Assembly: GCA_017459345.1 (NCBI GenBank)
Contig: JAFUDC010000138.1
Coordinates: forward strand, 10,853-74,852
DNA: 64,000 bases
Reading direction: 5' to 3'
From: Eubacterium sp.
GTDB taxonomy: Bacteria > Bacillota > Clostridia > Lachnospirales > Lachnospiraceae
This document shows positions 38,359 through 62,229 of this stretch, piece after piece. The translations under genes and the position numbers were made by a program. Position 1 is the stretch's first letter. Each line of letters begins with the position of its first letter. The notes under the pieces were generated by a model that was given only the letters and a program-made list of their open reading frames with translations, had not been told where the DNA came from and ran no database searches.

Positions 38359-38386
38359 AAAACGGGGGAATAATCCCCCGCTTTTT
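38357..38386. terminator. Bidirectional terminator between convergent genes
   Basis: CGGGGGA/TCCCCCG stem flanked by an A run and a T run. Confidence 0.75.
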
Positions 38387-38753
38387 ATGACACTGCCTCG
38401 ATATTCTTGGAGGCCACAATATCTACTCCTGTGCCTGCAGCATCTGCGAGAATCACATCGCCGATAGCAACCGGTGCTTTTACAATAATGGGTTTGATCT
38501 GCTCAAGCACATCAAAAATCTTACCCTTTGGTATGTCATCCTTGGTCTTGACGGACAGAACCGGAAGAATGCCGCCTTCAACCCGGACAATGGATGTGAC
38601 CACTCTGGTAGGATTGAGCACTTCTTTTCTGGCATACTCATCTCCTCGCGGGCAGGTATTGCCTGTAACATCAGTTACCTGACCGTCTTCCAGGGTTACC
38701 GTGATCTGGCAGCCCAGAGGACAGCGGATGCAGGTTAAATTTTTCTTTTCCAT
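38385..38753 (-). CDS. DUF1667-like small Cys-rich protein, partner subunit of a GlpA-like dehydrogenase
   Basis: CAT at 38751-38753 reads MEKKNLTCIRCPLGC...GNTCPRG on the minus strand; the track labels it +. Confidence 0.8.
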   Translation of the reverse strand: MEKKNLTCIRCPLGCQITVTLEDGQVTDVTGNTCPRGDEYARKEVLNPTRVVTSIVRVEGGILPVLSVKTKDDIPKGKIFDVLEQIKPIIVKAPVAIGDVILADAAGTGVDIVASKNIEAVS

Positions 38754-38767: not shown

Positions 38768-40042
38768 CTATTCACTTTCAATCTTCACTGTGATTGTCTC
38801 AAGTCCTTCAAATGCCTCAAGATCTTTCTTCTTCAGGATGATCTGCTCCATCTCACCTGGTGCCATAACCTGTTTTTTCCTGTGCTGCTTGCGCTCATCG
38901 TTGAAGTACACGCTGATATAGCTGTTCTTGAAGACATCGCCCACACGGAATCTTACGGTGAGAAGGTCTGTCATGTTATTAAGATGGATGGTGGTGGGTA
39001 CGGTATATCTGGCGCCGTTTGTGGCATTAACCTTGATTACCTTATCGTCCTTGGCTGCATCCTTGCCGTATCTTTCCTTCACATATTTTGCGGCGTTTTT
39101 GCCTGCTGTGGTTGCTTCCTCGGATACATAGTCAACCAGGTCATGTACATGCAGAACATTACCGCAGGCAAAGATACCTTCGATATTGGTCTCAAGGCTC
39201 TCGTCAACCAGAGGACCGTTGGTAACCGGACTTAACTCTACCTCAGCCTGCTTGCTGAGCTCGTTTTCGGGAATCAGACCTACGGAAAGCAGGAGGGTAT
39301 CACAGTCATAGTGTTCTTCGGTTCCGGGAACCGGCTTCCTGTCCGGACCTACCTCGGCGATGGTCACGCCGGTAAGACGGTCTCTGCCCTCGATATCGAT
39401 TACGGTATGGGATAGCTTCAGCGGGATGTCGAAGTCATCAAGACACTGAACGATATTTCTCTTCAGACCGCCGGAGTAGGGCATAACCTCAGCTACAACC
39501 TGTACATCCGCACCCTCAAATGTCATACGCCTTGCCATGATCAGGCCGATATCTCCGGAACCCAGGATGACAACCTTCTGGCCGGGCATGTAGCCTTCCA
39601 TGTTGACCAGTCTCTGAGCGGTACCGGCAGAATAGATACCTGCGGGACGGTAACCCGGAATGTTCAGGGCTCCACGAGGACGCTCCCGGCATCCCATGGC
39701 CAGAACAACAGCCTTGGCCTGGATCTGGTACATTCCCTCTTCTCTGTTCATCACGGTCACAACCTTATCCTTGCTGATATCCATGACCATGGTGTGCAGT
39801 TTATATTCGATATCAAGCTCTTTTGCCTGATCGATAAAGCGCTGGGCATATTCCGGTCCGGTAAGCTCCTCCTTAAAGGTATGCAGACCGAAGCCGTTGT
39901 GGATACACTGGTTTAAGATGCCGCCTAAGCGGTCATCTCTCTCTATCATCACGATGGAGTCTATGCCTTCTTTTTTGGCAGCGATAGCGGCAGCTAAGCC
40001 GGCAGGACCTCCACCTACGATTACAACATCATAAGATTTCAT
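38768..40042 (-). CDS. FAD/NAD(P)-dependent pyridine nucleotide-disulfide oxidoreductase subunit
   Basis: Minus-strand MKSYDVVIVGGGPAG, GGILNQCIHNGFG, GSGDIGLIMARR and CGNVLHVHDLVD; the track labels it +. Confidence 0.87.
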   Translation of the reverse strand: MKSYDVVIVGGGPAGLAAAIAAKKEGIDSIVMIERDDRLGGILNQCIHNGFGLHTFKEELTGPEYAQRFIDQAKELDIEYKLHTMVMDISKDKVVTVMNREEGMYQIQAKAVVLAMGCRERPRGALNIPGYRPAGIYSAGTAQRLVNMEGYMPGQKVVILGSGDIGLIMARRMTFEGADVQVVAEVMPYSGGLKRNIVQCLDDFDIPLKLSHTVIDIEGRDRLTGVTIAEVGPDRKPVPGTEEHYDCDTLLLSVGLIPENELSKQAEVELSPVTNGPLVDESLETNIEGIFACGNVLHVHDLVDYVSEEATTAGKNAAKYVKERYGKDAAKDDKVIKVNATNGARYTVPTTIHLNNMTDLLTVRFRVGDVFKNSYISVYFNDERKQHRKKQVMAPGEMEQIILKKKDLEAFEGLETITVKIESE

Positions 40043-40063: not shown

Positions 40064-41506
40064 TCAGTTCTCTTTGATCTTGCCGGTAAGCATGTTGGAG
40101 CCTGTTCCCTTCTTGGTGATCTGCTCCATCGGGATGCCGGTCTCTCTTGAAAGGATCTCCATGGTCTTCGGGGTACAGAATCCGGCCTGGCATCGGCCGG
40201 TACCCTGACGGGTTCTGCGCTTGATGCCATCTAAAGAGGTTGCGCCGATGGGACGGTTGATGGCATCCACAATCTCGGCTTCCGTGATCATTTCGCAGCG
40301 GCATACAATCTGTCCATACTGCGGATTCTTCTTGATCAGTTCATTTCTCTCCTCGATGGAGAGTCCCTCTGTGCGGACAACGCCCTTTCTGGTGTCAATG
40401 AAGTTCTCCTTTTTCGGGAAATGATACTTATCCTCAATCAATCCTGCCATCATCTCACCGATTGCAGGGGAGCTGGTAAGACCTGGGGACTCGATGCCGG
40501 CTGCATCAAAGAATCCCGGGGAGTCTGCAACTTCCTCTACGATAAATTCGTGATTCTCCCAGTGAGCACGGAGTCCGGAGAAGGAAGTGATAACCTTGTT
40601 CATGGGAAGGACATCCTTGGTAAGATGTGAGTGCTGTGCCTTGTAAACCAGGTCATCCAGGATCTCCTGGGTGGTGTTGGTGGATTCCTTGTCCTCCACA
40701 TCTGTTGCAGTCGGGCCTACGTAAAGGTTTCCATGGATGGTGGGGGCAGTTAAGACACCCTTACCCATCTTGCCGGGAAGTGTAAATACAGTCTTTGTGA
40801 AATAATTACCCAGTTCCTTATCCAGGAGCAGGTACTCTCCCTTACGGGCGATGATCTTGATCTTGTTCTCGCTTACCATGTTATGCAGTTCATCTGCATA
40901 AACACCGGCTGCATTGACAACGATCTTCGACTCAAAGGTTCCCTTGCTGGTTTCCACTTCATAGTGGTCGTCTTTCTTCACGATTCCGGTAACCTTGGTC
41001 TCGAACTTGAATTCGCAGCCATTCACTGCAGCGTTCTCACCCATGGCGATGGCCAGGTTGAAGGGACAGATTACACCGCCGGTCGGTGCATAGAGAGCTG
41101 CCACCGCATTAGGTGTCAGATTGGGCTCCATCTCAAGAAGCTCATCTCTCTCCACGATACGGACTCCGGGAACACCGTTCTTGATCCCCTGATCCAGAAG
41201 AACGTCCAGCTTGCCTCTCTCTGCTTCCACAGTACAGACAACCAGAGATCCATTCATCTTTGTCGGGAAGTCCAGTTCCTTGGAATACTTGTACATCAGC
41301 TCGTTGCCTCGTACATTCAGCTTTGCCATCAGAGTGCCCGGTTTGCAGTCGAAGCCGGAATGGATGACACCGCTGTTTGCCTTGGAAGTTCCGGATGCAA
41401 CATCATCGCCTTTTTCCAGCAGGCAAAGATTGATATCATACCTGGACAGCTCTCTGGCGATACAGGTTCCGGTTACTCCTCCGCCGATTACGATCACATC
41501 ATACAT
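40064..41506 (-). CDS. GlpA/LhgO-like FAD dehydrogenase with BFD-like [2Fe-2S] domain, copy 1
   Basis: GGGVTG, SGTSKANSGVIH, GIESPGLT and C-terminal CRCE...GRCQAGFC; start placed at MYDV after GGAGG. Confidence 0.85.
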   Translation of the reverse strand: MYDVIVIGGGVTGTCIARELSRYDINLCLLEKGDDVASGTSKANSGVIHSGFDCKPGTLMAKLNVRGNELMYKYSKELDFPTKMNGSLVVCTVEAERGKLDVLLDQGIKNGVPGVRIVERDELLEMEPNLTPNAVAALYAPTGGVICPFNLAIAMGENAAVNGCEFKFETKVTGIVKKDDHYEVETSKGTFESKIVVNAAGVYADELHNMVSENKIKIIARKGEYLLLDKELGNYFTKTVFTLPGKMGKGVLTAPTIHGNLYVGPTATDVEDKESTNTTQEILDDLVYKAQHSHLTKDVLPMNKVITSFSGLRAHWENHEFIVEEVADSPGFFDAAGIESPGLTSSPAIGEMMAGLIEDKYHFPKKENFIDTRKGVVRTEGLSIEERNELIKKNPQYGQIVCRCEMITEAEIVDAINRPIGATSLDGIKRRTRQGTGRCQAGFCTPKTMEILSRETGIPMEQITKKGTGSNMLTGKIKEN

Positions 41507-41634
41507 AAACCCCACCTCCATAATAATGAGTTTGCAGCAGCGATTCTACAAATATGCCCATAAATAAGGTTTTGAATGGCTGCTTATTGTGAATGTTTCA
41601 GGTATTAAAGGAAATATGCCATTCCTACTTATAT

Positions 41635-41682
41635 ATCATAATATTTTTTATAAAAAAAGAAAATATAGAAAAATATTTCACT
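41635..41682 (-). promoter_or_regulatory. Operator (41665-41682) and -10 box (TATGAT) for the leftward dehydrogenase operon
   Basis: Minus strand reads AGTGAA-ATATTT-TTCTAT; TATGAT starts 25 nt after the site ends. Confidence 0.65.
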
Positions 41683-41760: not shown

Positions 41761-41808
41761 ATTGAAAAAAATTTCTATATTGTGATGAGCTAAACATGTA
41801 GATATAAT
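41761..41808 (+). promoter_or_regulatory. Operator (41761-41778) and promoter for the rightward dehydrogenase-kinase operon
   Basis: ATTGAA-AAAAAT-TTCTAT, then TTGTGA(41780)-17 nt-TATAAT(41803). Confidence 0.7.
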
Positions 41809-41964: not shown

Positions 41965-43407
41965 ATGTATGATGTAATGATTATCGGAGGAGGAATCTCC
42001 GGATGTACCATAGCCAGAGAACTATCGCGTTACAAGGCCAATGTATGCCTGCTGGAGAAGGGGGACGATGTGGCGTCCGGCACCTCCAAGGTGAACGGGG
42101 GAGCATTTCATGCAGGATATGACCCCAAGCCCGGAACCATGATGGCCAGGATGAATGTCCGGGGTAATGAACTGGTTCATGAACTTGCTGATGTCCTGGA
42201 TTATCCGGCCCACTGGACAGGGGCCATGGTGGTATGTATTGACCCGGAGGAGAGATATAAGCTGGATACCCTCTATGAACAGGGAGTGGAGAACGGAGTG
42301 CCTGACCTCAGGATCCTGGAGAAGGATGAGGTCCTGGAGATGGAACCCAACCTGTCGCAGAATGTGGTAGCTGCCCTATATGCACCCACTGCCGGTTATA
42401 CCTGCCCCATGCAGTATACCATTGCATTTGCTGAGAGTGCTGCCATCAACGGAGTGGAGTTCAGGTTTGAGACAAAGGTAACCAACATCATCCGTAAAGA
42501 GGATCATTACATCCTCGAGACGACCAAGGGGAATTTCGAGACCAGGGCGGTGGTGAATGCTGCCGGTCTCTATGCCGATGAATTCCACAATATGATGAGC
42601 AGCGATAAGATACATATCACTCCCCGAAAGGGAGAGTACCTGCTCCTGGATAAGCCTTACGGTGAAACCTTTAAGGCAACCATCATGGTGCTGCCGGGTA
42701 AGATGGGCAAGGGTGTCCTCACGGCACCGACCATACACGGCAACCTCTATGTTGGGCCCACCTCCTATGATATCGAGGATAAGGAGGGAGTAAATACTAC
42801 CCGGGAGTACCTGGACAGCTTACTTCACGAGATGGAGCACCATCTGATCAATGAGGTTAAGCTTCCTGCCAGTAAGATTATCACTTCCTTTGCCGGTCTT
42901 CGTGCCCATGAAGATGGCCATGACTTTATCGTGAAGGAATTGCCGGAAGCACCGCTCTTCTTTGAGGCGGCTGGAATCGAATCCCCCGGTCTTACCAGCG
43001 CCCCGGCCATTGCCGAGTACCTGGTGGGCCTGATCAGCCAGAGGATGGAGCTTAGCGAAAAATCCGACTTTATTCCGGAACGGAAGAATGTAGTCAAGCT
43101 GGCAAAGATGACTATGGAAGAGCGCAATGCCCTGATTAAGGAGAAGCCGGAATTCGGCCAGATCATCTGCCGCTGTGAGATGATCACAGAGGGTGAGATC
43201 GTGGATGCCATCAACCGGCCGGTGGGTGCAACCTCCTTAGATGGAGTCAAGCGCCGGGTAAGAGCAGGCATGGGCAGATGCCAGGGCGGCTTCTGTACCC
43301 CCAAGGTGATGCAGATCCTTGCCAGGGAGCTTGGCAGAGATATGACAGAGATCACCAAGAAGGGTCATGGCTCTGAGATGCTTGTCGGGAAGATAAAGAT
43401 GAACTGA
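41965..43407 (+). CDS. GlpA/LhgO-like FAD dehydrogenase with BFD-like [2Fe-2S] domain, copy 2
   Basis: GGGISG, SGTSKVNGGAFH, GIESPGLT and CRCE...GRCQGGFC; colinear with copy 1 over its full length. Confidence 0.85.
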   Translation: MYDVMIIGGGISGCTIARELSRYKANVCLLEKGDDVASGTSKVNGGAFHAGYDPKPGTMMARMNVRGNELVHELADVLDYPAHWTGAMVVCIDPEERYKLDTLYEQGVENGVPDLRILEKDEVLEMEPNLSQNVVAALYAPTAGYTCPMQYTIAFAESAAINGVEFRFETKVTNIIRKEDHYILETTKGNFETRAVVNAAGLYADEFHNMMSSDKIHITPRKGEYLLLDKPYGETFKATIMVLPGKMGKGVLTAPTIHGNLYVGPTSYDIEDKEGVNTTREYLDSLLHEMEHHLINEVKLPASKIITSFAGLRAHEDGHDFIVKELPEAPLFFEAAGIESPGLTSAPAIAEYLVGLISQRMELSEKSDFIPERKNVVKLAKMTMEERNALIKEKPEFGQIICRCEMITEGEIVDAINRPVGATSLDGVKRRVRAGMGRCQGGFCTPKVMQILARELGRDMTEITKKGHGSEMLVGKIKMN

Positions 43408-43498: not shown

Positions 43499-45052
43499 AT
43501 GGAAAAGAAACAGTATGTCTTAGGTGTTGACCTTGGTACCACAAGTGCAAAATCCGTTATCATGGACCTGCAGGGTAATGCAGTAGGTATCGGACAGCTG
43601 GACAATCCCCTGACCTATTACAAGAATGGATTTGCAGAGATTGACGGACCTCAGATGATTGAGAATATCTATGCGACAACCCGTATGGCCATCGAACAGT
43701 GGAATGGAGATCCTAAGGACATCATCGGTATCTCTTTCTGTATGTTCAGAAGTACCATGGTAATGCGTACGGCAGACGGCGGCTTTGCTGTTCCGATTTC
43801 TATCTGGCAGGATCTTCGAGGCGGCGAGATGCTTGACTGGGAAGCTGAGCAGATTCCGGAGAAGGAACTCTATGATAACTGCGGTATGCCCAACTATGCA
43901 GCCAACCCCTCCGCAAGATTGTTCTGGTATATGAAGAACAACCCGGAAGCATATGAGAAGACCACAGATATCCACACCATGCAGGGCTTCCTGACCAAGG
44001 CTTATGGTGCAGATGATTATTATGATGACCTGACCTGCTCACCATATATGCAGATGAACGGGCATGACTTCGAGTACAAGAAAGAGCTCTGTGATGTATT
44101 TGGCGTTGATATCAACAAGCTGGCTCCTCTTAAGAAGTCTCTTGAGATCATCGGACACGTTACCGAAGAAGTAGCAGCCAAGACCGGTCTTGCTGTTGGT
44201 ACTCCTCTGGTTATGGGTACCGGCGACCAGCAGTGTGGTACACTGGGTACAGGTGTTGTTGACTCCACAGTTGGATATACCTGCGGCGGTACCGCTGGTC
44301 TTTCCATCGTTAACTCTGATGATTTCATCCGTGACCCCAATGGAAAGTGCTACGTTCTGGGAACACCGGCAGGACAGTGGTGTATCGAGGGTCTGTCCAA
44401 CAATGCAGGCTCCGCTTACAAGTGGGTAAAACAGGTAATGTGTACATCTCTGGCTGTACAGGCTGCAGAGCAGGGAAGAGACATCTATGATCTCATGAGT
44501 GAACTGGCTGATTCCGCAGGTGTCGGTGCTCACGGCGTTATGTTCCTCAACTACTTATCCGGTGCAACCACACCGAATAACAATGTTAATGCCCGCGGCT
44601 GCTTCCTTGGTATGACCATGGCAACAGATAAGGCTGACTTTATCCGTGCTGCCCTTGAGGGTGTTGTATTTGACCTTAAGGATATGTTCGATGCCATCCT
44701 TGATGCCGGCGTTAAGGACTTTGACGTAGTTCGTACCACAGGCGGTCTTGCCAGAAGTGATGTCTTCAATCAGATTCAGGCAGACGTTTACAACAAGGCT
44801 GTTGAGACAGTTGCAGTAGAAGAAGGAACCGGTATCGGCTGTGGTATCATGGCTGCAGTAGGCGTAGGCGCTTATCCGGATCTGAAGACAGCTGCAGAGA
44901 ACATGGTTAAGGTTGTTAAGAGATATGAGCCGATTCCGGAGAACGTAGAGAAATATAAAGTGATCTACGATGCATGGAGACAGGCTTATAAGTCCATCAA
45001 CGAAGGCGGAACCTTCGATGATCTTGCCAAGATCCAGAAGATGGCTGAGTAA
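43499..45052 (+). CDS. FGGY-family carbohydrate/polyol kinase
   Basis: GVDLGTTSAK, GTGDQQ, FIRAALEG and GGLARSDVFNQIQAD. It lacks the diagnostic glycerol-kinase motifs, so it is not called glpK. Confidence 0.85.
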   Translation: MEKKQYVLGVDLGTTSAKSVIMDLQGNAVGIGQLDNPLTYYKNGFAEIDGPQMIENIYATTRMAIEQWNGDPKDIIGISFCMFRSTMVMRTADGGFAVPISIWQDLRGGEMLDWEAEQIPEKELYDNCGMPNYAANPSARLFWYMKNNPEAYEKTTDIHTMQGFLTKAYGADDYYDDLTCSPYMQMNGHDFEYKKELCDVFGVDINKLAPLKKSLEIIGHVTEEVAAKTGLAVGTPLVMGTGDQQCGTLGTGVVDSTVGYTCGGTAGLSIVNSDDFIRDPNGKCYVLGTPAGQWCIEGLSNNAGSAYKWVKQVMCTSLAVQAAEQGRDIYDLMSELADSAGVGAHGVMFLNYLSGATTPNNNVNARGCFLGMTMATDKADFIRAALEGVVFDLKDMFDAILDAGVKDFDVVRTTGGLARSDVFNQIQADVYNKAVETVAVEEGTGIGCGIMAAVGVGAYPDLKTAAENMVKVVKRYEPIPENVEKYKVIYDAWRQAYKSINEGGTFDDLAKIQKMAE

Positions 45053-52309: not shown

Positions 52310-53056
52310 TTACCGGAACTCCAGGCCGAACTTCTCGATCAGCCGGGCTCTCTCAGCCATATAGACCTTGTTCTGTTTGTCCTGAACCAGCTTCTGGCCA
52401 ATCTGCTCTGCCACATTCTCAAATGGGGCGGTACCTGCCGGTGTTAATTCATCTACACGGATCAGGTGCCAGCCGAACTGGGTTTTCACCGGCCCCATGA
52501 TCTGGCCGATTTCCGGGTCGTTAAAGACTGCCTCGTCGAACTCTTTTACCATCTGGCCCCGGCCGAAGCTGCCCAGGTCACCGCCCTTGGCAGAAGAAGG
52601 GCAGGTGGATTTCTCTTTGGCCACATCCTCAAAGCTTTTTCCGTCCTTGATCTCCTCCAGGGCAGCCAAAGATGCCTCTTTTGTATCGGTCAGGATGTGA
52701 TGGGCCTTCGCCTGGCCGCCGGTCTGGAACTGGGAAGGATTCTGCTCATAATAGCTCCGACACTCCTCTAAGGAAGCAGTGATGTCCTTGACTGCCTGGG
52801 TCAGGGCATACTGGCTGAGCAGGTCCCTTCTGGCCCCTGCAAGAATCTCCTGGAATTCCTCCGTGGTATCATATCCCTTTTCCTCACCCAGCTTCTCAAA
52901 CAGAAAATAGTTGGCATACTGGATAAGAGCCTGCTGCCGTCCCTCAGCTGTCTTAACATATTGCTGCTGCTGAGCCGGGATTCTGGTCAGGAATTCGTTA
53001 AACTCTTTTTCCGTGATTTCGTGGCCTGCGGCCACGGCGATGATTTTATCTGCCAT
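52310..53056 (-). CDS. Parvulin-type peptidyl-prolyl isomerase
   Basis: HHIL, STCPSSAKGGDLGSFGRGQMVKEF and TQFGWHLI. Confidence 0.9.
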   Translation of the reverse strand: MADKIIAVAAGHEITEKEFNEFLTRIPAQQQQYVKTAEGRQQALIQYANYFLFEKLGEEKGYDTTEEFQEILAGARRDLLSQYALTQAVKDITASLEECRSYYEQNPSQFQTGGQAKAHHILTDTKEASLAALEEIKDGKSFEDVAKEKSTCPSSAKGGDLGSFGRGQMVKEFDEAVFNDPEIGQIMGPVKTQFGWHLIRVDELTPAGTAPFENVAEQIGQKLVQDKQNKVYMAERARLIEKFGLEFR

Positions 53057-53161: not shown

Positions 53162-53208
53162 ACTGAAATTAATTTCAATATTTTTTTTGCCATAAAATGA
53201 GTTACAAT
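53162..53208 (+). promoter_or_regulatory. Operator (53162-53179) and -10 box upstream of SorC regulator 1
   Basis: ACTGAA-ATTAAT-TTCAAT; TACAAT starts 24 nt after the site ends. Confidence 0.65.
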
Positions 53209-53297: not shown

Positions 53298-54269
53298 ATG
53301 AAGGGCGAAGTATACAGTCAGTCAACCTGTATCGTCAGTGCTGTGGCCTACCAATACTATGTATTAGGAAAGAAGCGCACGGAAATTGCTGAGAGTGTGG
53401 GCCTGTCCCCTGCCACATTGTCCAGGCTGCTGCGCAGGGCCAGGGAAGAAGGAATCATCGAGTTCCACATCACGGAGCCATATTTAAGCTGCTGCCAGAT
53501 GGAAGAGGAGCTTGCAGACCAGTTCGGCTTAAAATGCGCTATCGTGGTGCCTGTGCCTGAACAGTACAGGGAGGATAAGGAAAGAGTGAAGAAGCTGGTT
53601 GCCCTGGAGGGTGCCAGATACATACAGAGGATCATCAATGACGGGGATATCATCGGACTGAACTGGGGAGGGACTATGTATCACCTGATCCAGTACTTAA
53701 ATCCCTGCAGAAAGGTTCCGGCCAGCATCATCACCATGCATGGCAGTATCGAGCACAGCGTCAAGAAGTTCCAGGCCAAGTCCCTGGTCCGCCGGGCGGC
53801 CATGTCCTTCGGAGGGTCTACCCTGGTTACCGCTGCTCCGGGTCTCTCCACCTCCCCTGAGGAGCATGAGAAGGTTCTTTCCAGCCCGGAATATCAGAAG
53901 CTGCAGAAAATGTACAGCAAGATTGATATCTCTGTCAGCGGGGTCGGCTCCATCTTTCCAGAGTTTGATTCCCCCCTGGTTACCTCCGATTTCCTGAACA
54001 AGGAAGAGCTCGATGAGGTGATGGCCCAGAAACCGGCCTGTGATTTTCTGCTCCGCTTTTTTAATGAACAGGGGGAGGAGTGTCATACATCAATATCAGA
54101 TCGAACAGTTTCGATTCCTGTTGATGTCTATAAGAAGATTCCCACCAGGATCGTGGTGGCCTCCGGAAAGGCCAAGGCTCATGCCATCATGTCCCTCTTA
54201 AATGGTGACCTGGTGGATGTGCTGATTATAGATAAAGACCTGGCAGATGCCGTGGTTGACCTGACCTGA
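53298..54269 (+). CDS. SorC/DeoR(Bacillus)-family sugar-binding transcriptional regulator 1
   Basis: N-terminal HTH YQYY...EIAESVGLSPATLSRLLRRAREEGII, plus IGLNWGGT, GVGS and a C-terminal VLIID. Confidence 0.88.
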   Translation: MKGEVYSQSTCIVSAVAYQYYVLGKKRTEIAESVGLSPATLSRLLRRAREEGIIEFHITEPYLSCCQMEEELADQFGLKCAIVVPVPEQYREDKERVKKLVALEGARYIQRIINDGDIIGLNWGGTMYHLIQYLNPCRKVPASIITMHGSIEHSVKKFQAKSLVRRAAMSFGGSTLVTAAPGLSTSPEEHEKVLSSPEYQKLQKMYSKIDISVSGVGSIFPEFDSPLVTSDFLNKEELDEVMAQKPACDFLLRFFNEQGEECHTSISDRTVSIPVDVYKKIPTRIVVASGKAKAHAIMSLLNGDLVDVLIIDKDLADAVVDLT

Positions 54270-54299
54270 GAAGAATCTTTAAGATGCCGTGGTTTTTTT

Positions 54300-54347
54300 A
54301 GTGAAATAATTTTCTATATTTTCTTTTTCGATTTCTGAGTTTATAAT
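54300..54347 (+). promoter_or_regulatory. Operator (54300-54317) and -10 box upstream of the RuBisCO-like gene
   Basis: AGTGAA-ATAATT-TTCTAT; TATAAT at 54342 is 25 nt after the site; the -35 position (TTTTCT) is poor. Confidence 0.7.
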
Positions 54348-54423
54348 GGCATCATAAAGAAAATAACCTCTCATCGCAGAGGTGGAAACCCGATAAAGTG
54401 CAACAAATCACAGGAGGGAAATT

Positions 54424-55746
54424 ATGTTTGTAGATCCTATTGCAGTTCAGTACCCGGAAAGTCTTCAGAAAGACCATTTTGTCATTGCAACTTATTATTG
54501 TGCAACACCCCTTGACACCAACGCTTTAAAGTTTGCAGTAGCTCTTGGTATCGAGCAGAGCTGCGGTACCTGGGTTAAGGTTCCCGGTGAGACAGAGGAA
54601 GTTCGTGAGAGAAGTATCGCACGAGTTGTTGGTATCTATGAGACACCTACCTATTCCGTACGCATTCCTGAGGATGTGAAGAAGAGACACTTCATCATCC
54701 GTATCGCCTTCCCGGCATGGAACTTCGGACCATCCTTCTCCATGATGCTTTCCACCGTAATCGGCAACATCTCCAGTTCAGGAGAGGTTAAGCTTCTTGA
54801 CCTTGAGTTCCCGGAGACCTATCTTAAGAACTTCCAGGGTCCCAAGTTTGGTGTTCAGGGCCTTCGTGATCTCTTAGGCGTACAGGACAGACCGCTTCTT
54901 AACAACATGATTAAGCCATGTACCGGTCTTGATCCTCAGGCAACCGCAAAGTTCGCATATGATGCAGCTTTAGGCGGAATCGATGTCATCAAGGATGATG
55001 AGCTTGTTGCCAATCCTCCATACTGCCCGCTGGAAGACCGTGTTAAGGCTGTTATGCCGGCAGTGAAGGAAGCAGACAAGATCAAAGGCGAGAAGACCTT
55101 ATATGCATTCAACATCACAGACAGAACAGAGAACCTGAAGAAGAACGCCATGACCGTTATCGAGAACGGCGGTAATGCACTTCTGCTTAACTACAACAGT
55201 ATCGGACTGGATGCCTGCCGCATGATCGCAGAGGATCCGGATATCAATGTTCCGCTGCTGGCACATTCCGATTACACAGGTGCTGTTTATGAGTCTCCAT
55301 GGTCCGGCGTAAGCCTGAACCTGATCGGAGCTATCTTCCCGAGAATGGCTGGTATGGATATGGTTATCGCCCTTTCTCCATACGGTAAGTTCCCGATGAT
55401 GGAAGACGCTTTCATCTATGGCGGATATAAGATGCTTCAGCCATTCGGCCACATTAAGCCAATCATGCCGATGCCGGGCGGTGGAACCACACAGGGCCAC
55501 ATCCAGGATATCATCGACAAGTTCGGTACTGACGTCATGATCGCAGCCGGCGGAGCTGTTCACGGACATCCCATGGGATCCACCGCCGGTGCCAAGGCAT
55601 TCCGCCAGGGTATCGACGCTGTTATGGAGGGTCAGGATTTAAGAGCTGCTGCTGAGTCCGGCAAGTATCCGGAACTTAAGGCTGCTATCGATGCATGGGG
55701 CATCTATGGCGAAGACCAGGGTAAGATCTTCGATCTTAAGGGATGA
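54424..55746 (+). CDS. RuBisCO-like protein (form IV RLP)
   Basis: EQSCGTW, IGN, IKP, GGIDVIKDDE (carbamylation motif), YGKF, PGGG and AAGGAVHGHP. Several RuBP-specific residues are substituted; no small subunit or PRK is present. Confidence 0.9.
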   Translation: MFVDPIAVQYPESLQKDHFVIATYYCATPLDTNALKFAVALGIEQSCGTWVKVPGETEEVRERSIARVVGIYETPTYSVRIPEDVKKRHFIIRIAFPAWNFGPSFSMMLSTVIGNISSSGEVKLLDLEFPETYLKNFQGPKFGVQGLRDLLGVQDRPLLNNMIKPCTGLDPQATAKFAYDAALGGIDVIKDDELVANPPYCPLEDRVKAVMPAVKEADKIKGEKTLYAFNITDRTENLKKNAMTVIENGGNALLLNYNSIGLDACRMIAEDPDINVPLLAHSDYTGAVYESPWSGVSLNLIGAIFPRMAGMDMVIALSPYGKFPMMEDAFIYGGYKMLQPFGHIKPIMPMPGGGTTQGHIQDIIDKFGTDVMIAAGGAVHGHPMGSTAGAKAFRQGIDAVMEGQDLRAAAESGKYPELKAAIDAWGIYGEDQGKIFDLKG

Positions 55747-55826
55747 TCTTAAGTCTGATTTGAGAATTTTTGATTAGCCTGTTTGTATAACTTATCATGA
55801 CATCATAGATTTTAGCTGACAGTATG

Positions 55827-55869
55827 AACAGCTGCAGGGTATCCGTTAGGATGCCTTGCAGCTGTTTTT
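55827..55869 (+). terminator. Intrinsic terminator after the RLP gene
   Basis: AACAGCTGCA...TGCAGCTGTT stem plus a T run. Confidence 0.75.
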
Positions 55870-55894
55870 CGTCTCTGAGGATAAAAGGGACAGA

Positions 55895-55923
55895 TTGACG
55901 TACTATTCAGAATCCTATATAAT
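55895..55923 (+). promoter_or_regulatory. Near-consensus promoter of SorC regulator 2
   Basis: TTGACG-17 nt-TATAAT; no copy of the 18-bp operator is adjacent. Confidence 0.7.
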
Positions 55924-55982
55924 TATGAGTAAAGTTTTCGCTCGTAGATGGGGTTTAATATATAACAGGGGGGCAGGATTCT

Positions 55983-56948
55983 ATGGATAAGGTTGTATAC
56001 AGCCAGTCAGTCTGTCTGATGAATGAGATACTGGAGATGTATTATCTAAGCGGCATGACCCAGCAGAAGATTGCGGCCAGGCTGAATCTGTCCAAGCCCA
56101 CTGTCTCCAGGCTTCTTAAGAGTGCAGAGAAGAACAATATGCTGTCTGTTTCCATCAGAGAGCCTTATCTGGACTGTCTGAAGCTGCAGAAGGAGTTTTC
56201 TGCCATCTATCCCGGGATTAAGATCTATGTCGTGCCTGTTCTTAAGGATTATGAGAAGAATCATAAGATGACGGTTGCCATTGAGGGAGCCAGGCATGTG
56301 CAGAGGATGCTTCAGGATAACCAGACCCTGGGTGTCGCCTGGGGCGGTACCATCCATTATATGATTCAGACCCTGAACCCCTGCCAGAAGAAGAATATCT
56401 CTGTTGTGACTCTGCACGGGGAGATTTCCAGATGCGGGGATGAGTATGATGTGGACGAGCTGGTAAAGCGGGCCGCCATGTCCCTCGGAGGCAAGCAGTA
56501 CATTTTCGGTCAGTCGGGTTATTTTCCCTCGGAAGAAGCCCTGAGGGATTACTATGAAGATGTCAATTATAAGAAACTTCAGAGGATATTTGAGAAGATC
56601 GATCTGTCTGTCATCGGTGCGGGATGCTGGGGAAGGGTCATGACATCGCCTCTGACACCACCCATCACTGACTACATTTCTCCGGAGGAGTTTAAGGAGA
56701 TTCAGGAGAAGGATGTGGCGGCAGACATCATGCTGCATTATGTCAACAGGCAGGGGGAGGAAATCGACAGTGAGATCAGGAAGAGAACCCTGTCCATTGA
56801 CCTGGATATCTACAGGAAGATTCCCTGCAAGATAGCCCTCCTGTCCGGAGTGGAGAAGGTGAAGGCTCTGCAGGCTGTCATCAATGGCGGTTATGCCGAT
56901 GTGATCTACTGTGATTATGAGCTGGCGAAAAAATTGTATTATATGTAA
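55983..56948 (+). CDS. SorC-family sugar-binding transcriptional regulator 2
   Basis: YYLSGMTQQKIAARLNLSKPTVSRLL and LGVAWGGT; colinear with regulator 1 (shared VYSQSxC and NPCxK). Confidence 0.88.
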   Translation: MDKVVYSQSVCLMNEILEMYYLSGMTQQKIAARLNLSKPTVSRLLKSAEKNNMLSVSIREPYLDCLKLQKEFSAIYPGIKIYVVPVLKDYEKNHKMTVAIEGARHVQRMLQDNQTLGVAWGGTIHYMIQTLNPCQKKNISVVTLHGEISRCGDEYDVDELVKRAAMSLGGKQYIFGQSGYFPSEEALRDYYEDVNYKKLQRIFEKIDLSVIGAGCWGRVMTSPLTPPITDYISPEEFKEIQEKDVAADIMLHYVNRQGEEIDSEIRKRTLSIDLDIYRKIPCKIALLSGVEKVKALQAVINGGYADVIYCDYELAKKLYYM

Positions 56949-56961
56949 GTGTTATTCGAGG

Positions 56962-56986
56962 ACCCGGTTTTTTCCGGGTCTTTTCA
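56962..56986 (+). terminator. Intrinsic terminator after SorC regulator 2
   Basis: GACCCGG/CCGGGTC plus TTTT. Confidence 0.7.
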
Positions 56987-57264
56987 TATTAGCTCTACCT
57001 GATTATTGCGGGAAAAAATTAAAAAGAGAGTATGCTCTCCGTAAAAAGAAGTTTGCATTGTCAGTGTGGGAAGAGTTGGTTTTTGAAGTTTCATAAGAAA
57101 TAAAAAATGGTATCATATATAAGACTTTCTTCGTATAAAAAAATAATCCGCGTAAGCATTACTTAATATAATCCAGGATGGATATCCCCCGGGACAGCCG
57201 AATTTCTTGTGCAAATGTTACAATTTTAACAATATATTTTCTTTTAAAAGCCGCAATTTATCCT

Positions 57265-57312
57265 ATTGAAATTTATTTCACTCTGTGCATAAATATATCT
57301 TCAAGTTATAAT
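57265..57312 (+). promoter_or_regulatory. Operator (57265-57282) and -10 box upstream of the cupin-dehydrogenase-kinase genes
   Basis: ATTGAA-ATTTAT-TTCACT; TATAAT at 57307 is 25 nt after the site. Confidence 0.7.
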
Positions 57313-57346
57313 TAATTCATAAGCAGCAAATCTGAGGTGACTCTTT

Positions 57347-57682
57347 GTGAAAATCTGGGATAGAAAGATTTCTGAATTGAATATGGACCAGTCAAAGCAG
57401 GAACTATTATCGGCGGAGGGAGGTTACACGATCTCCCTGATATGCTTCGACAGGGGTCAGATAGAAAGAAGGCATGTTCATCGTATTATCAATGAAGTCT
57501 TTTTTGTACTTGGCGGCAGAATAGATATCATTGTGGATGACTGCAGGTACACTTTGGAAAGCGGCCAGATGGTTTATCTGGAGGCCGGAGATATCCATTC
57601 CCTGGAGAATGTTTACCAGGAGGAGGCCCGGCTGCTGCAGATCAAAACCAGGCTGGAAATTGAAGATTATACAGAATTATAG
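57347..57682 (+). CDS. Small cupin-domain protein
   Basis: GTG start after GAGG; HVHRIINEVFFVLGG and GDIHSLEN match cupin metal motifs 1 and 2. Confidence 0.75.
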   Translation: MKIWDRKISELNMDQSKQELLSAEGGYTISLICFDRGQIERRHVHRIINEVFFVLGGRIDIIVDDCRYTLESGQMVYLEAGDIHSLENVYQEEARLLQIKTRLEIEDYTEL

Positions 57683-57763
57683 CTGTGATTATCTGTAACT
57701 GATAACGGTACAGACTTTGAAATCACTTAGTGATTATCTATGATGAAAGGGGAGGCTGATGAT

Positions 57764-59068
57764 ATGGATGTACAGGAACTCTTGAAAAAAGGTACATTTG
57801 ATTGTGAGTGCGGCAGAACCCACCAATGTGATACCAAGCATCTGCTGGTGGGCAGGGGAGTGCTTGAGCAGATCCCGGGCCTGCTTAGGGAGGATGGCAT
57901 CACACATGTCTGCGTCCTGTCTGATGGCAATACCAGACCCTTATGCGGTGCTAAGGTGATCGACCTGCTTAAGGCAGATGGGGTTACCGTGGATGAGGCT
58001 TATTTTGACCAGACTGAGGTTGTGGTCCCGGATGAGAAGTCCATAGCCTATGCGGACTCCTTTATCAAAGACGGCGCACAGCTGGTGATCGGCGTGGGCG
58101 GCGGCGTGATGAACGACCTGAGCAAATATGTGGCTTATGAACATGATATTCCAAGTATGATCGTGGCCACAGCCCCCTCCATGGATGGCTTTGCAGCCAG
58201 CGGGGCTGTTATGTTGTTAAAGGGTCTCAAGGTGACGGTAAACCGCCGGGCTCCCCGCTTTATCGTGGGTGAGCTGGATATCCTGAAGGATGCCCCCATC
58301 GATATGATCCGGTCCGGTATCGGTGATACTCTGGGCAAGTACTCCGCTCTAAGCGACTGGAAGCTTGCTATCCTCATGGGGGAGGAGGAGCCCTGTCAGA
58401 TGATCTATGATCTGGTGGAGGAATCCCTCACCAATTGTGCCAATAATATTGACGCCATTATGAGGAGAGACCCGGATGCCATCGGAAAGCTGATGGAAGG
58501 TCTGGCAGTAGTGGGTATTACCCTGGCTTATCAGAAGAGCTCCCGTCCCGCTTCCGGATCTGAGCACATGATTTCTCATTTCTTTGAGCTGACCTGCATT
58601 AAGAACCACCGCCCCTACTTCCCTCATGGAATCGATGTGGGCTATGCGGCTATCGTATCTGAGATTCTGAGGAAAAGGCTTTTGCAGGAAGATCCCGATA
58701 GCTTCGCATTCAGCTTTGATCGGGCTGCCTGGAGAGCCGGTCTTGAGGAATGTTTCTCCGATATGGCGGATGAGATCCAGAAGATGCAGGATGACAACGG
58801 AACCTATGAAAAGGACCGGTCCGGCTTCATCAGGGAGAACTGGGATACCATCCGGCCCATGCTGGAACAGACTCCGGGTGTGGACTTCATCCGGGAGAAG
58901 TTAAGAAGAGCCGGCTTCAACATTCAGGAATTTATCGATCTTTATGGCCTGGATCATATCAAGAACGCAGTGCGCTATGCATCGGATATCAAGACAAGAT
59001 ATACATTGCTCTCCCTGCTCAGTGATACAGGCTATCTGGAGCAATATGCTTCTGAACTTGAACTATAA
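57764..59068 (+). CDS. sn-glycerol-1-phosphate dehydrogenase-like (AraM/EgsA family)
   Basis: N-terminal CECGRTH, GVGGGVMNDLSK, TAPSMDG, GIGDTLGK, SRPASGSEH and HGIDV; start placed at ATG 57764. Confidence 0.85.
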   Translation: MDVQELLKKGTFDCECGRTHQCDTKHLLVGRGVLEQIPGLLREDGITHVCVLSDGNTRPLCGAKVIDLLKADGVTVDEAYFDQTEVVVPDEKSIAYADSFIKDGAQLVIGVGGGVMNDLSKYVAYEHDIPSMIVATAPSMDGFAASGAVMLLKGLKVTVNRRAPRFIVGELDILKDAPIDMIRSGIGDTLGKYSALSDWKLAILMGEEEPCQMIYDLVEESLTNCANNIDAIMRRDPDAIGKLMEGLAVVGITLAYQKSSRPASGSEHMISHFFELTCIKNHRPYFPHGIDVGYAAIVSEILRKRLLQEDPDSFAFSFDRAAWRAGLEECFSDMADEIQKMQDDNGTYEKDRSGFIRENWDTIRPMLEQTPGVDFIREKLRRAGFNIQEFIDLYGLDHIKNAVRYASDIKTRYTLLSLLSDTGYLEQYASELEL

Positions 59069-59206
59069 GACTTCACAAGTCCCTGATACTGCATAGATAA
59101 GATTAAACTTGCCATACTCTCTTCTTTTAAGAGGGAACAGGTTAATTCAATCAGATTCTGATGTATGCAGTTTAACATATACATTTTATATTAAAGGAGG
59201 TACATT

Positions 59207-60712
59207 ATGCGTTATTTCTTTGGTCTTGATCTTGGAACTGGTGGAATCAAGTCTGTATTATTTGATGAGACTGGTAAGGAGATTGCATCTGAAATTAAGG
59301 AATATCCACTTTATCAGCCATATAACGGCTGGTCAGAGCAGGATCCCGAAGACTGGTACAATGCGGCCGTTATCACCATGAGGAATGTCATGGAGAAATC
59401 CGGCGTAGCCAAAGAAGATGTTCTGGGTATCGGATTCTCCGGTCAGATGATGGGTGCCGTTCTTCTCGACAAGAATGCCAAGCCCCTCCGCCGTGCCATC
59501 CTCTGGAATGACCAGAGAACCGGTGAAGCTACCGTTGAGATGGCAAAGAGAGTCGGCGCTGACCGTATGCTTGCCGTAACCTGCAATCCGCCCAGAGAGG
59601 GCCTTACCGCTGCCAAGATTTTCTGGGTAGAGATGAATGAGCCGGAAATCTTTGCTCAGTGCGAGCACATCCTTCTTCCCAAGGATTATCTGCGTTTCCG
59701 TCTGACCGGTGATTTCGCTGCCGAGATGTCCGATGCTTCTGCTACTCAGCTTCTGGATACTCCTAAGCGTAAGTGGTCAGAGGAGATGATGGACGGGCTC
59801 AATATCAAGCCTTCCATGCTGGGCAAGCTCTATGAGTCCTGTGAAGTAACAGGAACCCTGATCCCGGATGTAGCTAACCGCATCGGCTTAAGTGAGAAGA
59901 CCATCGTTGTCGGCGGTGCCGGAGATAATGCGGCAGCTTCCGTAGGTACCGGCGTTGTTGCTGAAGGCCGTGCCATGACAACCATCGGAACCTCCGGTGT
60001 TGTATTTGCCTACACTGACAAACCCACCATGGACCCGACAGGTGGTGTGTACACCTTCTGTACCGCAGTTCCCAATGCATGGCATATGATGGGTCTGGTT
60101 AACTCTGCCGGATTCTCTGTAAAATGGTGGCGTAATACCTTCGTTCCCGGCGATGAGGACTATCTTGAGATCGACAATCTGGCCTCCCAGTCCCCCATCG
60201 GCTCCAATAAGCTCATCTACCTTCCCTACCTGATGGGTGAGGCTTCCCCATACTGGGATGTAAACGCACGAGGCGGCTTCTTCGGCCTGTCCTCCATCCA
60301 TACCAAGGGTGATATGACCCGTTCCGTTATGGAAGGTGTCACCTACGCTCTGAATGATTCCATGAAGAAATATCGTGACTTCGGCGTAGATATCAAGACC
60401 ATGAGAATGTGCGGCGGCGGATCCAAGGCACCTATCTGGAGACAGATGATGGCTGATATCTATGATCTTCCGGTAGCTCTTCCGGCAGGCTCCTCCGAGA
60501 ATGCAGCAGCTCTTGGTGCAGCTATCCTTGCCATGGTTGGCGCCGGCGTATATCCATCCGTTCCGGAAGCCTGCGATAAGCTGGTGAAGCTCCGCGATGA
60601 GAAAATTCTCCCGATCCCGGAAAATGTTGCAGAGTATGCCAAGTTCAATGGTGTATACCGTAAGATCTACTCCGCAATCAAGCCCATCAATGATGAGCTG
60701 GCAACACTTTAA
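59207..60712 (+). CDS. Xylulokinase-like FGGY kinase
   Basis: DLGTGGIK, GWSEQDPEDW, GFSGQM, ILWNDQRT, GAGDNAA and GGGSKAPIWRQMMAD; no xylA in the window. Confidence 0.85.
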   Translation: MRYFFGLDLGTGGIKSVLFDETGKEIASEIKEYPLYQPYNGWSEQDPEDWYNAAVITMRNVMEKSGVAKEDVLGIGFSGQMMGAVLLDKNAKPLRRAILWNDQRTGEATVEMAKRVGADRMLAVTCNPPREGLTAAKIFWVEMNEPEIFAQCEHILLPKDYLRFRLTGDFAAEMSDASATQLLDTPKRKWSEEMMDGLNIKPSMLGKLYESCEVTGTLIPDVANRIGLSEKTIVVGGAGDNAAASVGTGVVAEGRAMTTIGTSGVVFAYTDKPTMDPTGGVYTFCTAVPNAWHMMGLVNSAGFSVKWWRNTFVPGDEDYLEIDNLASQSPIGSNKLIYLPYLMGEASPYWDVNARGGFFGLSSIHTKGDMTRSVMEGVTYALNDSMKKYRDFGVDIKTMRMCGGGSKAPIWRQMMADIYDLPVALPAGSSENAAALGAAILAMVGAGVYPSVPEACDKLVKLRDEKILPIPENVAEYAKFNGVYRKIYSAIKPINDELATL

Positions 60713-62185: not shown

Positions 62186-62229
62186 ATTGGGCACGGCTGC
62201 TTGAGTATGGCAGCTATCTCTTGACTGTT

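Follow-up and report, generated by a model that had tools for sequence, protein, structure and literature searches.

Which reaction does a RuBisCO-like protein (RLP) catalyze when its gene lies among sugar kinases, polyol-phosphate-type dehydrogenases and SorC-family regulators? This question is raised by a stretch of 64,000 nucleotides from Eubacterium sp., a gut member of the Lachnospiraceae (contig JAFUDC010000138.1), hereafter the window, in which a form IV RLP gene stands between the genes of two such regulators, SorC1 and SorC2. To our knowledge, about five RLP reactions have been described, each of which revealed a new pathway, and RLPs without an assigned function form a recognized class. 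Our analysis indicates that the window RLP, whose reaction is unassigned, is part of an undescribed catabolic regulon, in which it probably rearranges a sugar phosphate. We find it likely that, within the regulon of SorC1, the RLP processes a 1-phospho-2-keto compound supplied by the kinases and dehydrogenases. A more specific reading, in which it enolizes a ketose 1-phosphate and shifts the carbonyl to yield an intermediate of the pentose phosphate pathway, draws on analogy and is tentative; we would give it a probability of roughly 40%. What the sequences show directly is which genes are present, how their linkage and a common operator recur, and which active-site residues are kept; repression by SorC1, the substrate class and the reaction are points that we infer. 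Assigning the reaction would annotate thousands of genes that are now mislabelled as RuBisCO or MtnW, and would reveal the way in which many anaerobes bring polyols or unusual ketoses into their central metabolism.

Family placement and active site of the RuBisCO-like protein

The RLP was placed by profile hidden Markov model scores, scores against PDB structures and its catalytic residues. Its closest solved relative is MtnW (2oek; 263 bits over the full length), followed by Chlorobium-type RLPs (228 bits), and the weakest is the Rhodospirillum rubrum isomerase (3qfw; 137 bits). The curated NCBIfam models for MtnW gave 336 bits (NF007095; cut-off 409) and 288 bits (TIGR03332; cut-off 514), and the OiaX model NF042437 gave 221 bits against a cut-off of 700. 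Moreover, Lys98 of MtnW (Geobacillus kaustophilus numbering), reportedly the catalytic general base of that enzyme, aligns with Asn115 of the RLP, a position occupied by Asn in 65 of 68 family members. With scores below the curated cut-offs of both MtnW and OiaX and with Lys98 replaced, the RLP falls outside the characterized RLP families, as had been proposed in a first-pass annotation made from the sequence alone. A database search returned 1776 clusters matching the RLP at E<=1e-30, a number that may include other RLPs and true RuBisCOs, and the top 120 matches are ~438 residues long and 63-91% identical to it. These relatives are named 'RuBisCO large subunit C-terminal-like domain-containing protein' in the database, or are mislabelled as MtnW or RuBisCO. 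We conclude that the RLP is a member of a large, widespread and functionally uncharacterized form IV subfamily of ~438-residue proteins. The NCBI curated models of June 2026 hold no name for this clade, and the searchable literature yielded no functional study of the clade or of the operator described below, an earlier mention in subscription journals or sequence-similarity networks being possible.

The catalytic residues were read from a MAFFT alignment of the RLP and 67 distinct relatives (68 members) with spinach RbcL (identical to PDB 8RUC/1IR1) and the MtnW of G. kaustophilus. This alignment reproduced the residue map that the first-pass annotation had drawn by eye, in which E60, T65, N123, K175, the KDDE motif, H294 and K334 of spinach RbcL are kept. 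The corresponding residues of the RLP are E44, T49, N115, K164, H281 and K322, and the Mg2+/carbamate site K201/D203/E204 is retained as K190/D192/E193. It also reproduced every change listed there, namely K177 to C166, R295 to S282, H327 to I315 and PGGG in place of ASGG (S379 to G352), and disclosed the further replacements of H298 by Thr and of T173 by Met. Across the 68 members, E60, T65, W66, K175, K201, D203, E204, H294, K334 (K322 of the RLP), G381 and G403 are invariant, and so is C166. The invariance of K175, K201, D203, E204 and H294 makes enolization chemistry plausible.

In RuBisCO structures, T65, W66, G381 and G403/404 bind the C1 phosphate, next to the carbonyl, and R295, H298 and H327 bind the distal phosphate. 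The alignment shows the residues of the first set to be invariant and those of the second to be replaced. Since the proximal phosphate site is kept and the distal one lost, the substrate is expected to be a monophosphate with its phosphate beside the carbonyl, matching other RLPs of known substrate. The protein comprises both RuBisCO large-subunit domains, with substitutions at residues for ribulose 1,5-bisphosphate (RuBP) binding and carboxylation and a lost distal phosphate site, the features of form IV. No Calvin-cycle partner (phosphoribulokinase or small subunit) was found among the scanned window genes or the recurrent neighbours in 78 related loci. An AlphaFold2 model built with 22 close homologues (mean pLDDT 68.6; below 50 over residues 284-353, including loop 6) was left unused.

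The predicted SorC1 regulon and its partners in other genomes

Gene coordinates in the window come from a listing of open reading frames (ORFs) combined with Pfam and NCBIfam profile searches (Table 1). Six plus-strand ORFs were confirmed in 53298-60712, the stretch to which the first-pass annotation refers. The further FGGY kinases and GlpA-like dehydrogenases that it named as partners are real but lie elsewhere, at 38385-45052, in a module ~12 kb upstream of the RLP in which three minus-strand genes (DUF1667, Pyr_redox_2 and DAO + BFD) diverge from a plus-strand DAO + BFD gene and FGGY-A. These dehydrogenases belong to the Thermococcus (GlpTk) type with NOX and DUF1667 partners rather than to the classical GlpABC.

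What links the two modules is a 24-nt block, GAAAATATAGAAAAWTATTTCACT, which occurs upstream of the RLP gene (54300, minus strand) and at 41659-41682 between the two divergent DAO genes. There is no further copy in the window, and 0 matches are expected by chance. The core of the block is the palindrome ATTGAAA-N4-TTTCAAT. When up to 2 mismatches were allowed, six matches to this palindrome were observed in the window against 0.41 expected, five of them in relevant promoter regions (41665, 41761, 53162, 54300 and 57265). The sixth, at 1060, has 2 mismatches, falls within a small HPr-like ORF and probably arose by chance. The co-regulation of the RLP with kinases and dehydrogenases that had been suggested for this locus thus finds support in a predicted operator shared by the RLP, SorC1, the cupin-G1PDH-FGGY unit and the divergent DAO units. 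The motif was also followed in the 78 RLP loci, which stem from one genome scan and whose ORFs were called, clustered by BLAST and labelled by Pfam/NCBIfam. In these loci and the window together (1.34 Mb) there are 99 operator sites, 55 of which are upstream of RLP genes. Of 77 RLP genes, 45 have an operator within -300 to +150, a 32-fold enrichment, with cases in three phyla; the other sites precede DAO, SorC, FGGY, G1PDH, PHP and PEP_hydrolase genes. Most RLP loci lacking the operator either belong to a clade with a GlpP-type regulator or have the RLP internal to an operon.

The SorC genes within 7 kb of an RLP (45 loci) all resemble SorC1 (38-77% identity) more than SorC2, and L009 and L015, which are close relatives, are alone in having a further SorC gene downstream of the RLP. 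SorC1 is therefore the conserved partner of the RLP and SorC2 a lineage-restricted paralogue. SorC1, and not SorC2, is everywhere orthologous to the RLP-linked regulator; we infer that it is SorC1 that binds ATTGAAA-N4-TTTCAAT, and the units carrying this palindrome would form one predicted regulon. The best NCBIfam match of SorC1 is the DeoR of Bacillus subtilis type, below its cut-off. The predicted operator provides a regulatory signature with which the pathway genes can be marked genome by genome, and SorC1 together with the operator offers a practical handle, as the inducer of SorC1 should be a pathway intermediate. Within the cluster, two terminators and a promoter-like site proper to SorC2 set the RLP, SorC2 and the cupin-G1PDH-FGGY genes apart as separate units. 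The RLP is thus predicted to be transcribed alone, the units being tied by the operator and not by co-transcription.

In some genomes the RLP is present as two paralogues separated by a few kb (L001/L021 of Caproiciproducens faecalis, L018 and L026). In L001/L021 and L018 (Caproiciproducens), each paralogue has its own perfect palindrome ~82 nt upstream; in L026, an operator-like site is present at only one of the two.

Table 1. Genes and signals of the RLP cluster and of the upstream module, by position in the window
Feature	Position	Strand	Remarks
DUF1667 subunit	38385..38753	-	BLAST-clusters with the PF07892 protein of L001
Pyr_redox_2 (NOX-like) subunit	38768..40042	-	Profile match
DAO + BFD FAD dehydrogenase, GlpTk type	40064..41521	-	Orthologue of the RLP-linked G3PDH-like subunit
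Operator-like palindrome	41665..41682		Divergent DAO<>DAO intergenic region
Second operator-like palindrome	41761..41778		Same DAO<>DAO intergenic region; 1 mismatch
DAO + BFD [2Fe-2S] FAD dehydrogenase, second copy	41965..43407	+	Paralogue of the RLP-linked DAO
FGGY-A kinase	43499..45052	+	Profile match; FGGY
Operator-like palindrome	53162..53179		Upstream of SorC1; ACTGAAATTAATTTCAAT
SorC1, SorC/DeoR-type repressor	53298..54269	+	PF04198 Sugar-bind and N-terminal helix-turn-helix
Operator-like palindrome	54300..54317		107 nt upstream of the RLP start; AGTGAAATAATTTTCTAT
RLP, form IV RuBisCO-like protein, 440 aa	54424..55746	+	PF02788 (E 9e-9) and PF00016 (E 4.6e-52, full model length)
Intrinsic terminator after RLP	55826..55872	+	19-bp hairpin, then UUUUU; -34.7 kcal/mol; z = -9.8 against shuffles
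SorC2 promoter-like site	55895-55923		TTGACG-17-TATAAT, 11/12
SorC2, paralogous SorC regulator	55983..56948	+	N-terminal helix-turn-helix and PF04198; 38% identical to SorC1
Terminator after SorC2	56958-56983		Hairpin, -17.2 kcal/mol
Operator-like palindrome	57265..57282		65 nt upstream of the cupin-G1PDH-FGGY unit; ATTGAAATTTATTTCACT, 1 mismatch
Small cupin, 111 aa	57347..57682	+	PF07883, E 1.8e-13
G1PDH-like Fe-ADH_2 protein, 442 aa	57740..59068	+	PF13685
FGGY-B, xylulokinase-like kinase	59207..60712	+	TIGR01312 XylB, 528 bits, above the cut-off of 380

The 78 loci span Bacillota, Actinomycetota, Acidobacteriota, Synergistota, Caldisericota, Chloroflexota and archaea, and the hosts of the family, archaea included, are mostly anaerobes that live in the gut or rumen, in digesters, in soil or in the subsurface; among the cultivable carriers are Pseudoramibacter, Eubacterium barkeri, Acetobacterium wieringae, Caproiciproducens and Enterocloster aldenensis. 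In counts over 75 loci, with genes taken up to 7 kb from the RLP, SorC genes occur in 45, PEP_hydrolase-like in 34, UPF0261 in 26, FGGY in 22, DAO/BFD in 15, NOX-like in 14, and DUF1667 and glycerol-1-phosphate dehydrogenase (G1PDH)-like genes in 9 each; methionine-salvage (mtn) genes are absent among the recurrent neighbours in the 78 loci. In one layout (A), the order is SorC-RLP-PEP_hydrolase-UPF0261-PEP_hydrolase, often with a HisJ-type PHP phosphatase; UPF0261 is an ATP-dependent kinase domain (PMC12624787). A second (B) reads SorC-RLP-FGGY-G1PDH-HAD(IIA)-DAO-NOX-DUF1667-FGGY, and a third (C), found in Acetobacterium, RLP-DAO-NOX-DUF1667-FGGY-SorC-DAO. In layout D, a galactitol/ascorbate-type phosphotransferase system (PTS) and a SerA-like or Zn-dependent dehydrogenase are followed by SorC-RLP and then by AraD, an L-ribulose-5-phosphate 4-epimerase that lies directly downstream of the RLP in these PTS-type loci (NCBIfam AraD subfamily, 364 bits against a cut-off of 331). 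There are also minimal pairs, SorC-RLP-FGGY in Acidobacteriota and FGGY-RLP in archaea, and in L050 the RLP stands beside an FGGY kinase of rhamnulokinase-like (ketose 1-kinase) type and a class II aldolase. The window is a split version of layout B. A neighbour-joining tree of the 68 family members shows that contexts largely follow clades, with UPF0261-type loci nested among the closest relatives of the window RLP; the RLPs of L008 and L011, 73-76% identical to it, have UPF0261/PEP_hydrolase contexts.

These comparisons confirm that the linkage of the RLP to an FGGY kinase and a FAD dehydrogenase resembling glycerol-3-phosphate dehydrogenase (G3PDH) is conserved in other genomes. Of the partner set originally proposed, SorC1, the FGGY kinases and the dehydrogenases are conserved; the cupin, which has no BLAST match in any of the 78 loci, and the lineage-restricted SorC2 are not. 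Similarly, the polyol route put forward in the first-pass annotation holds as one feeding route and not as the sole one, since the same RLP/SorC pair is associated elsewhere with UPF0261 and PEP_hydrolase-like genes or with a PTS. The conserved partners in other genomes are thus SorC1, an FGGY kinase and the Thermococcus-type G3PDH complex, with a UPF0261 kinase or a PTS in the alternative contexts.

DAO 40064 shares 68-70% identity with the RLP-adjacent DAO genes of 12 distinct loci (L001 and L021 overlap), and DAO 41965 is 58-62% identical to RLP-linked DAO genes; against the nearest NCBIfam model, a G3P oxidase, the DAO score is 308 bits for a cut-off of 460. FGGY-A is 49-54% identical to the FGGY kinases found beside DAO-NOX-DUF1667 and the RLP in 12 loci. 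It reaches no equivalog cut-off (GlpK, 180 bits against 590), its second-best matches are gluconate kinases, and its best solved relative is LsrK (143 bits). FGGY-B matches XylB of Escherichia coli (2itm) with 356 bits and has orthologues 72-88% identical in L012, L016, L017 and L055. The G1PDH-like protein 57740 scores 146 bits against the NCBIfam G1PDH model (cut-off 413) and 173 bits against its best PDB match, the G1PDH 9h4x, and orthologues 66-67% identical adjoin the RLP in L016, L017 and L055 (Pseudoramibacter and Eubacteriaceae).

Other features of these neighbourhoods were also apparent. Among the enzymes that accompany the RLP family elsewhere, PEP_hydrolase-like proteins are the most frequent. 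In the clade ~50% identical to the window RLP, layout A has a GlpP antiterminator and a ComB-like phosphatase in place of SorC and PHP. This is the case in L062-L075 (Syntrophomonadaceae and other thermophilic Bacillota), where the RLP follows a GlpP-type glycerol-3-phosphate antiterminator, not SorC, and a gene like ComB (2-phosphosulfolactate phosphatase family) lies between the PEP_hydrolase and UPF0261 genes, a context that may indicate a connection with glycerol phosphate or with the chemistry of 2-phospho-acids. In L058 (Lutisporaceae) and in the archaeal metagenome-assembled genomes L077 and L081, the RLP and FGGY genes stand beside a class III aminotransferase, to which L077 and L081 add an aminotransferase of class I/II. 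These neighbours suggest that an amino-sugar or amino-polyol is fed in.

A candidate reaction and its alternatives

In the pathway that we favor, an FGGY kinase would phosphorylate a polyol or ketose on a terminal hydroxyl, and the FAD enzyme or the G1PDH-like enzyme would oxidize the hydroxyl next to the CH2-O-phosphate to give a ketose 1-phosphate (a 1-phospho-2-keto sugar), for which we favor a pentulose 1-phosphate, with a tetrulose 1-phosphate as the alternative. The RLP would bind this compound through its retained P1 phosphate site, enolize it at C3 with Mg2+ and carbamylated Lys190, and move the carbonyl along the chain through two enediolates, as the R. rubrum RLP does on 5-methylthioribulose 1-phosphate. 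The product, a pentulose 5-phosphate (or erythrose 4-phosphate), would enter the pentose phosphate pathway, and isomerases of the type used in erythritol (Ery) catabolism would be unnecessary.

Several lines of evidence converge on this substrate. Every dehydrogenase that partners an RLP of this subfamily comes from a family oxidizing the hydroxyl adjacent to a phosphomethyl group, be it GlpTk-type G3PDH, G1PDH-like or, in PTS loci, SerA-like. Together with one partner FGGY kinase of ketose 1-kinase type, the proximal phosphate site, the SorC1/operator pair that is kept across contexts and the UPF0261 contexts with RLPs 73-76% identical to that of the window, these dehydrogenases point to one common intermediate, R-CHOH-CO-CH2-O-phosphate. 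The same ketose 1-phosphate is probably sensed by SorC1. The presence of AraD downstream in PTS loci and the xylulokinase-like FGGY-B argue for the pentose level, and the position of AraD directly after the RLP fits a pentulose 5-phosphate product. Moreover, migration of the carbonyl erases the stereocentres that it passes, so that one RLP could serve several kinases and dehydrogenases.

A number of observations weigh against the proposed carbonyl shift. By the scores given above, the RLP is further from the R. rubrum 1,3-isomerase than from MtnW, and the proposed chemistry is an analogy, not a transfer based on homology. In RuBisCO, E60, N123 and K334 serve the addition of CO2 or the carboxylated intermediate; an isomerase needs none of them, yet they are retained here and may point to carboxylation or decarboxylation. 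A phosphatase gene (HAD-IIA, PHP, His_Phos or ComB) recurs in many clusters and is unexplained by the model, as is the part played by the UPF0261/PEP_hydrolase partners, and the chain length rests mainly on the adjacency of AraD in three or four loci. A search of sequencing runs found the sequence in four gut metagenome DNA runs only and in no RNA run. Finally, Pseudoramibacter faecis HA2172, which carries the full cluster (L016), is Biolog-negative for erythritol, adonitol, D-arabitol and glycerol (PMC12029686).

Two candidate substrates were given less weight. Erythritol is fermented by Eubacteriaceae. It became a less favored candidate because this strain, the sole carrier of the cluster for which a phenotype was found, is erythritol-negative (PMC12029686). 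Dihydroxyacetone phosphate (DHAP) or glycerol phosphate, hinted at by the G3PDH- and G1PDH-like partners and by GlpP in the ~50% clade, is less likely, since none of the kinases is GlpK and DHAP would require no further conversion.

The retained CO2-handling residues lead to a different proposal, in which the RLP would be a beta-keto-acid decarboxylase or transcarboxylase resembling OiaC/OiaX: FGGY-A would phosphorylate a sugar acid such as tetronate, the FAD dehydrogenase would oxidize it beside the phosphate to a 3-oxo-acid 4-phosphate, and the RLP would decarboxylate this to DHAP or a ketose phosphate. E60, N123 and K334 are kept here and lost in MtnW, and RLPs of apionate catabolism do such chemistry (PMC6302742). 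The gluconate kinases among the matches of FGGY-A and the enzyme of the D-2-hydroxyacid dehydrogenase family in PTS-type loci fit a sugar acid, which would also account for the negative polyol results. The first-pass annotation had noted the absence of methionine-salvage and apionate/tetronate partners, and Pfam scans of the window ORFs of at least 150 residues agree: there is no match to the IF-2B (MtnA), APH (MtnK), Aldolase_II (MtnB), DUF1537 or phosphoribulokinase families, and neither an apionate oxidoisomerase nor an acid-sugar dehydrogenase was found among the scanned ORFs. Several HAD hydrolases are present, none of which was examined for assignment to MtnX. Given also the low OiaX score, the use of G1PDH-like and GlpTk-type enzymes on polyol phosphates and the position of AraD, which suits a pentulose phosphate product better than DHAP, we regard a decarboxylase as unlikely. 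Nearly the whole RuBisCO catalytic set is kept with the C1-phosphate site, and only the distal phosphate site is lost; the subfamily could thus even act as a true carboxylase or decarboxylase on monophosphate ketoses, for example turning a ketose 1-phosphate and CO2 into 3-phosphoglycerate and a short hydroxy-acid. We think this quite improbable; if true, it would represent a CO2-dependent route of polyol cleavage in anaerobes and a living model for RuBP carboxylation arising from sugar-phosphate catabolism. The retention of CO2-handling residues in the RLP family has in itself a bearing on the evolution of RuBisCO chemistry.

That the closest solved and curated relative is MtnW brings up a tautomerase ('enolase') acting on a 2,3-diketo 1-phosphate outside methionine salvage, with the co-located phosphatase as the next enzyme, as in the pair MtnW/MtnX. 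Recurrent phosphatase genes (HAD-IIA, PHP/HisJ-like, His_Phos, ComB) would then have a role, two different dehydrogenases per cluster could yield a diketone, and the window cupin has the fold of the acireductone dioxygenase MtnD. We hold such an enolase to be distinctly unlikely, as E60 and K334 are kept here and lost in MtnW whereas its base Lys98 is Asn, the cupin is not conserved, the minimal clusters (L013/L014 and the Acetobacterium loci) carry no phosphatase, and an O2-dependent acireductone step is hardly expected in strict anaerobes. An ordinary MtnW with its salvage partners elsewhere in the genome is scarcely credible: MtnW is the best match and some family members bear the label '2,3-diketo-5-methylthiopentyl-1-phosphate enolase', but the RLP is under both equivalog cut-offs and lacks Lys98, the carriers are oxygen-independent anaerobes, and the conserved neighbours across the 78 loci are sugar kinases, dehydrogenases, PTS genes and a sugar-phosphate repressor, never mtn genes. 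With the same enediolate chemistry and substrate class as the carbonyl shift, the RLP might instead be a 3-epimerase or racemase of the ketose 1-phosphate, the role of EryC in Brucella, setting the configuration for an aldolase or isomerase encoded elsewhere. The class II aldolase-family gene after the RLP and rhamnulokinase-like kinase of L050 and the class II fructose-bisphosphate (FBP) aldolase between the two window modules would suit an epimerase. No aldolase is conserved with the RLP across loci, however, the window FBP aldolase has no operator site and looks housekeeping, and AraD downstream suggests that the phosphate ends distal to the carbonyl; this role, too, strikes us as distinctly unlikely. 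A further idea, that the RLP acts on phosphorylated autoinducer-2 (P-DPD, a 2,3-diketone phosphate chemically like the MtnW substrate) as an analogue of LsrG, would take up the LsrK resemblance of FGGY-A and the fact that the SorC-family regulator LsrR is the second-best NCBIfam match of both SorC1 and SorC2. We rejected it as very improbable: the LsrR and LsrK scores (99 and 211 bits) are far below their cut-offs (486 and 528), the FAD and NAD dehydrogenases have no role in autoinducer-2 processing, LsrACDB, LsrF and LsrG were not found, the phosphate of P-DPD is not adjacent to the enolized carbonyl, and the searchable literature showed no link between RLPs and autoinducer-2.

Flanking genes and comparison with known systems

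The stretch between the two modules (45219-53056) codes for a LUD-domain protein, a histidine-phosphatase-family protein, a glycerol dehydrogenase (above the NF006941 cut-off), a phosphoglucomutase, a WG-repeat protein, the class II FBP aldolase and a PpiC rotamase, and none of these genes has an operator site. Homologues of its histidine phosphatase flank the RLP cluster in L016, L017 and L055. A second sugar-phosphate cluster (24737-37484) holds three DeoC/LacD-like aldolases (24737, 29683 and 32620), an FGGY kinase (26384), a transaldolase-like protein (28155), PEP_hydrolase-like proteins (30580 and 31410), a fusion of an aldo-keto reductase with a 4Fe-4S domain (33418) and three HAD phosphatases of the Cof type, with neither a UPF0261 kinase nor an operator site. 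One of its genes (31410-32597) encodes a complete PEP_hydrolase-like TIM barrel with an AraC-type helix-turn-helix fused at the C-terminus, which suggests that this barrel can act as a ligand sensor in a transcription factor. At 111-5308, WhiA is followed by a PfkB-family kinase and a fused EIIA-EIIB-EIIC PTS protein, in what looks like a fructose operon (1-phosphofructokinase and fructose PTS). Past the cluster, at 61400-63558, a lower-GC stretch (~44%) contains the genes of a secreted lysine-rich protein of 225 residues (+), which has a Big_2 domain and contains cysteine in its C-terminal segment, and of a 442-residue protein (-) with a weak, sub-threshold match to the HIRAN domain.

Among known systems, MtnW/YkrW of Bacillus and Geobacillus shares with the RLP the two-domain fold of the RuBisCO large subunit, the Mg2+/carbamate site with K175 and KDDE, and H294. 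The distal phosphate site is lost in both, so that both would take a monophosphate with the phosphate by the carbonyl. They differ at E60, K334 and the invariant Cys at K177 of the RLP family, which are Gly, Ser and Met in MtnW, at Lys98, which is Asn here, and in a context of mtn genes there and of sugar or polyol kinases and dehydrogenases here.

In pathway design, the window recalls the Ery pathway of Brucella and Rhizobium, with an FGGY kinase, oxidation beside the phosphate by a FAD enzyme of the G3PDH family, isomerization toward the pentose phosphate pathway and a SorC-family repressor. That pathway reportedly consists of EryA, EryB and EryD with the isomerases EryC, TpiA2 and RpiB. Homologues of these three isomerases were not found in the cluster or among its recurrent neighbours, and the RLP would replace them. 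An EryA/EryB/EryD-like layout without isomerases, as the locus had been described, is thus a fair description, with the differences that the enzymes here (FGGY, DAO/G3PDH-like and SorC) are known by family only and that the dehydrogenase is of the soluble GlpTk type with NOX and DUF1667. The trio of DAO/BFD, NOX and DUF1667 corresponds to the Thermococcus-type G3PDH complex, also found in Thermotoga and Clostridium perfringens (bioRxiv 10.1101/2024.02.29.582781), with the same gene order and domains (DAO with a C-terminal BFD [2Fe-2S], Pyr_redox_2 and DUF1667). In the window, a non-GlpK kinase stands beside it, the linkage is to the RLP and SorC rather than to glpF/glpK, and there is a second DAO/BFD paralogue, all of which makes it probable that the substrate of the complex is not glycerol 3-phosphate itself.

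The RLPs OiaC/OiaX of D-apionate catabolism act on a 3-oxo 4-phosphate that arises from a kinase after oxidation (PMC6302742); the window RLP differs from OiaX in its score and in a neighbourhood without DUF1537 kinase or apionate oxidoisomerase. The chemistry proposed here is closest to that of the R. rubrum RLP (DeepYkr), a 5-methylthioribulose-1-phosphate 1,3-isomerase that shifts the carbonyl from C2 to C4, yields a ketose 5-phosphate and has a cupin partner (PMC6302742). A cupin gene is nearby in both cases, although the one in the window is not conserved, and the R. rubrum RLP is the most distant of the solved ones. The substrate of the R. rubrum enzyme is a by-product of S-adenosylmethionine, whereas the substrate of the window RLP would be an ordinary catabolic sugar phosphate.

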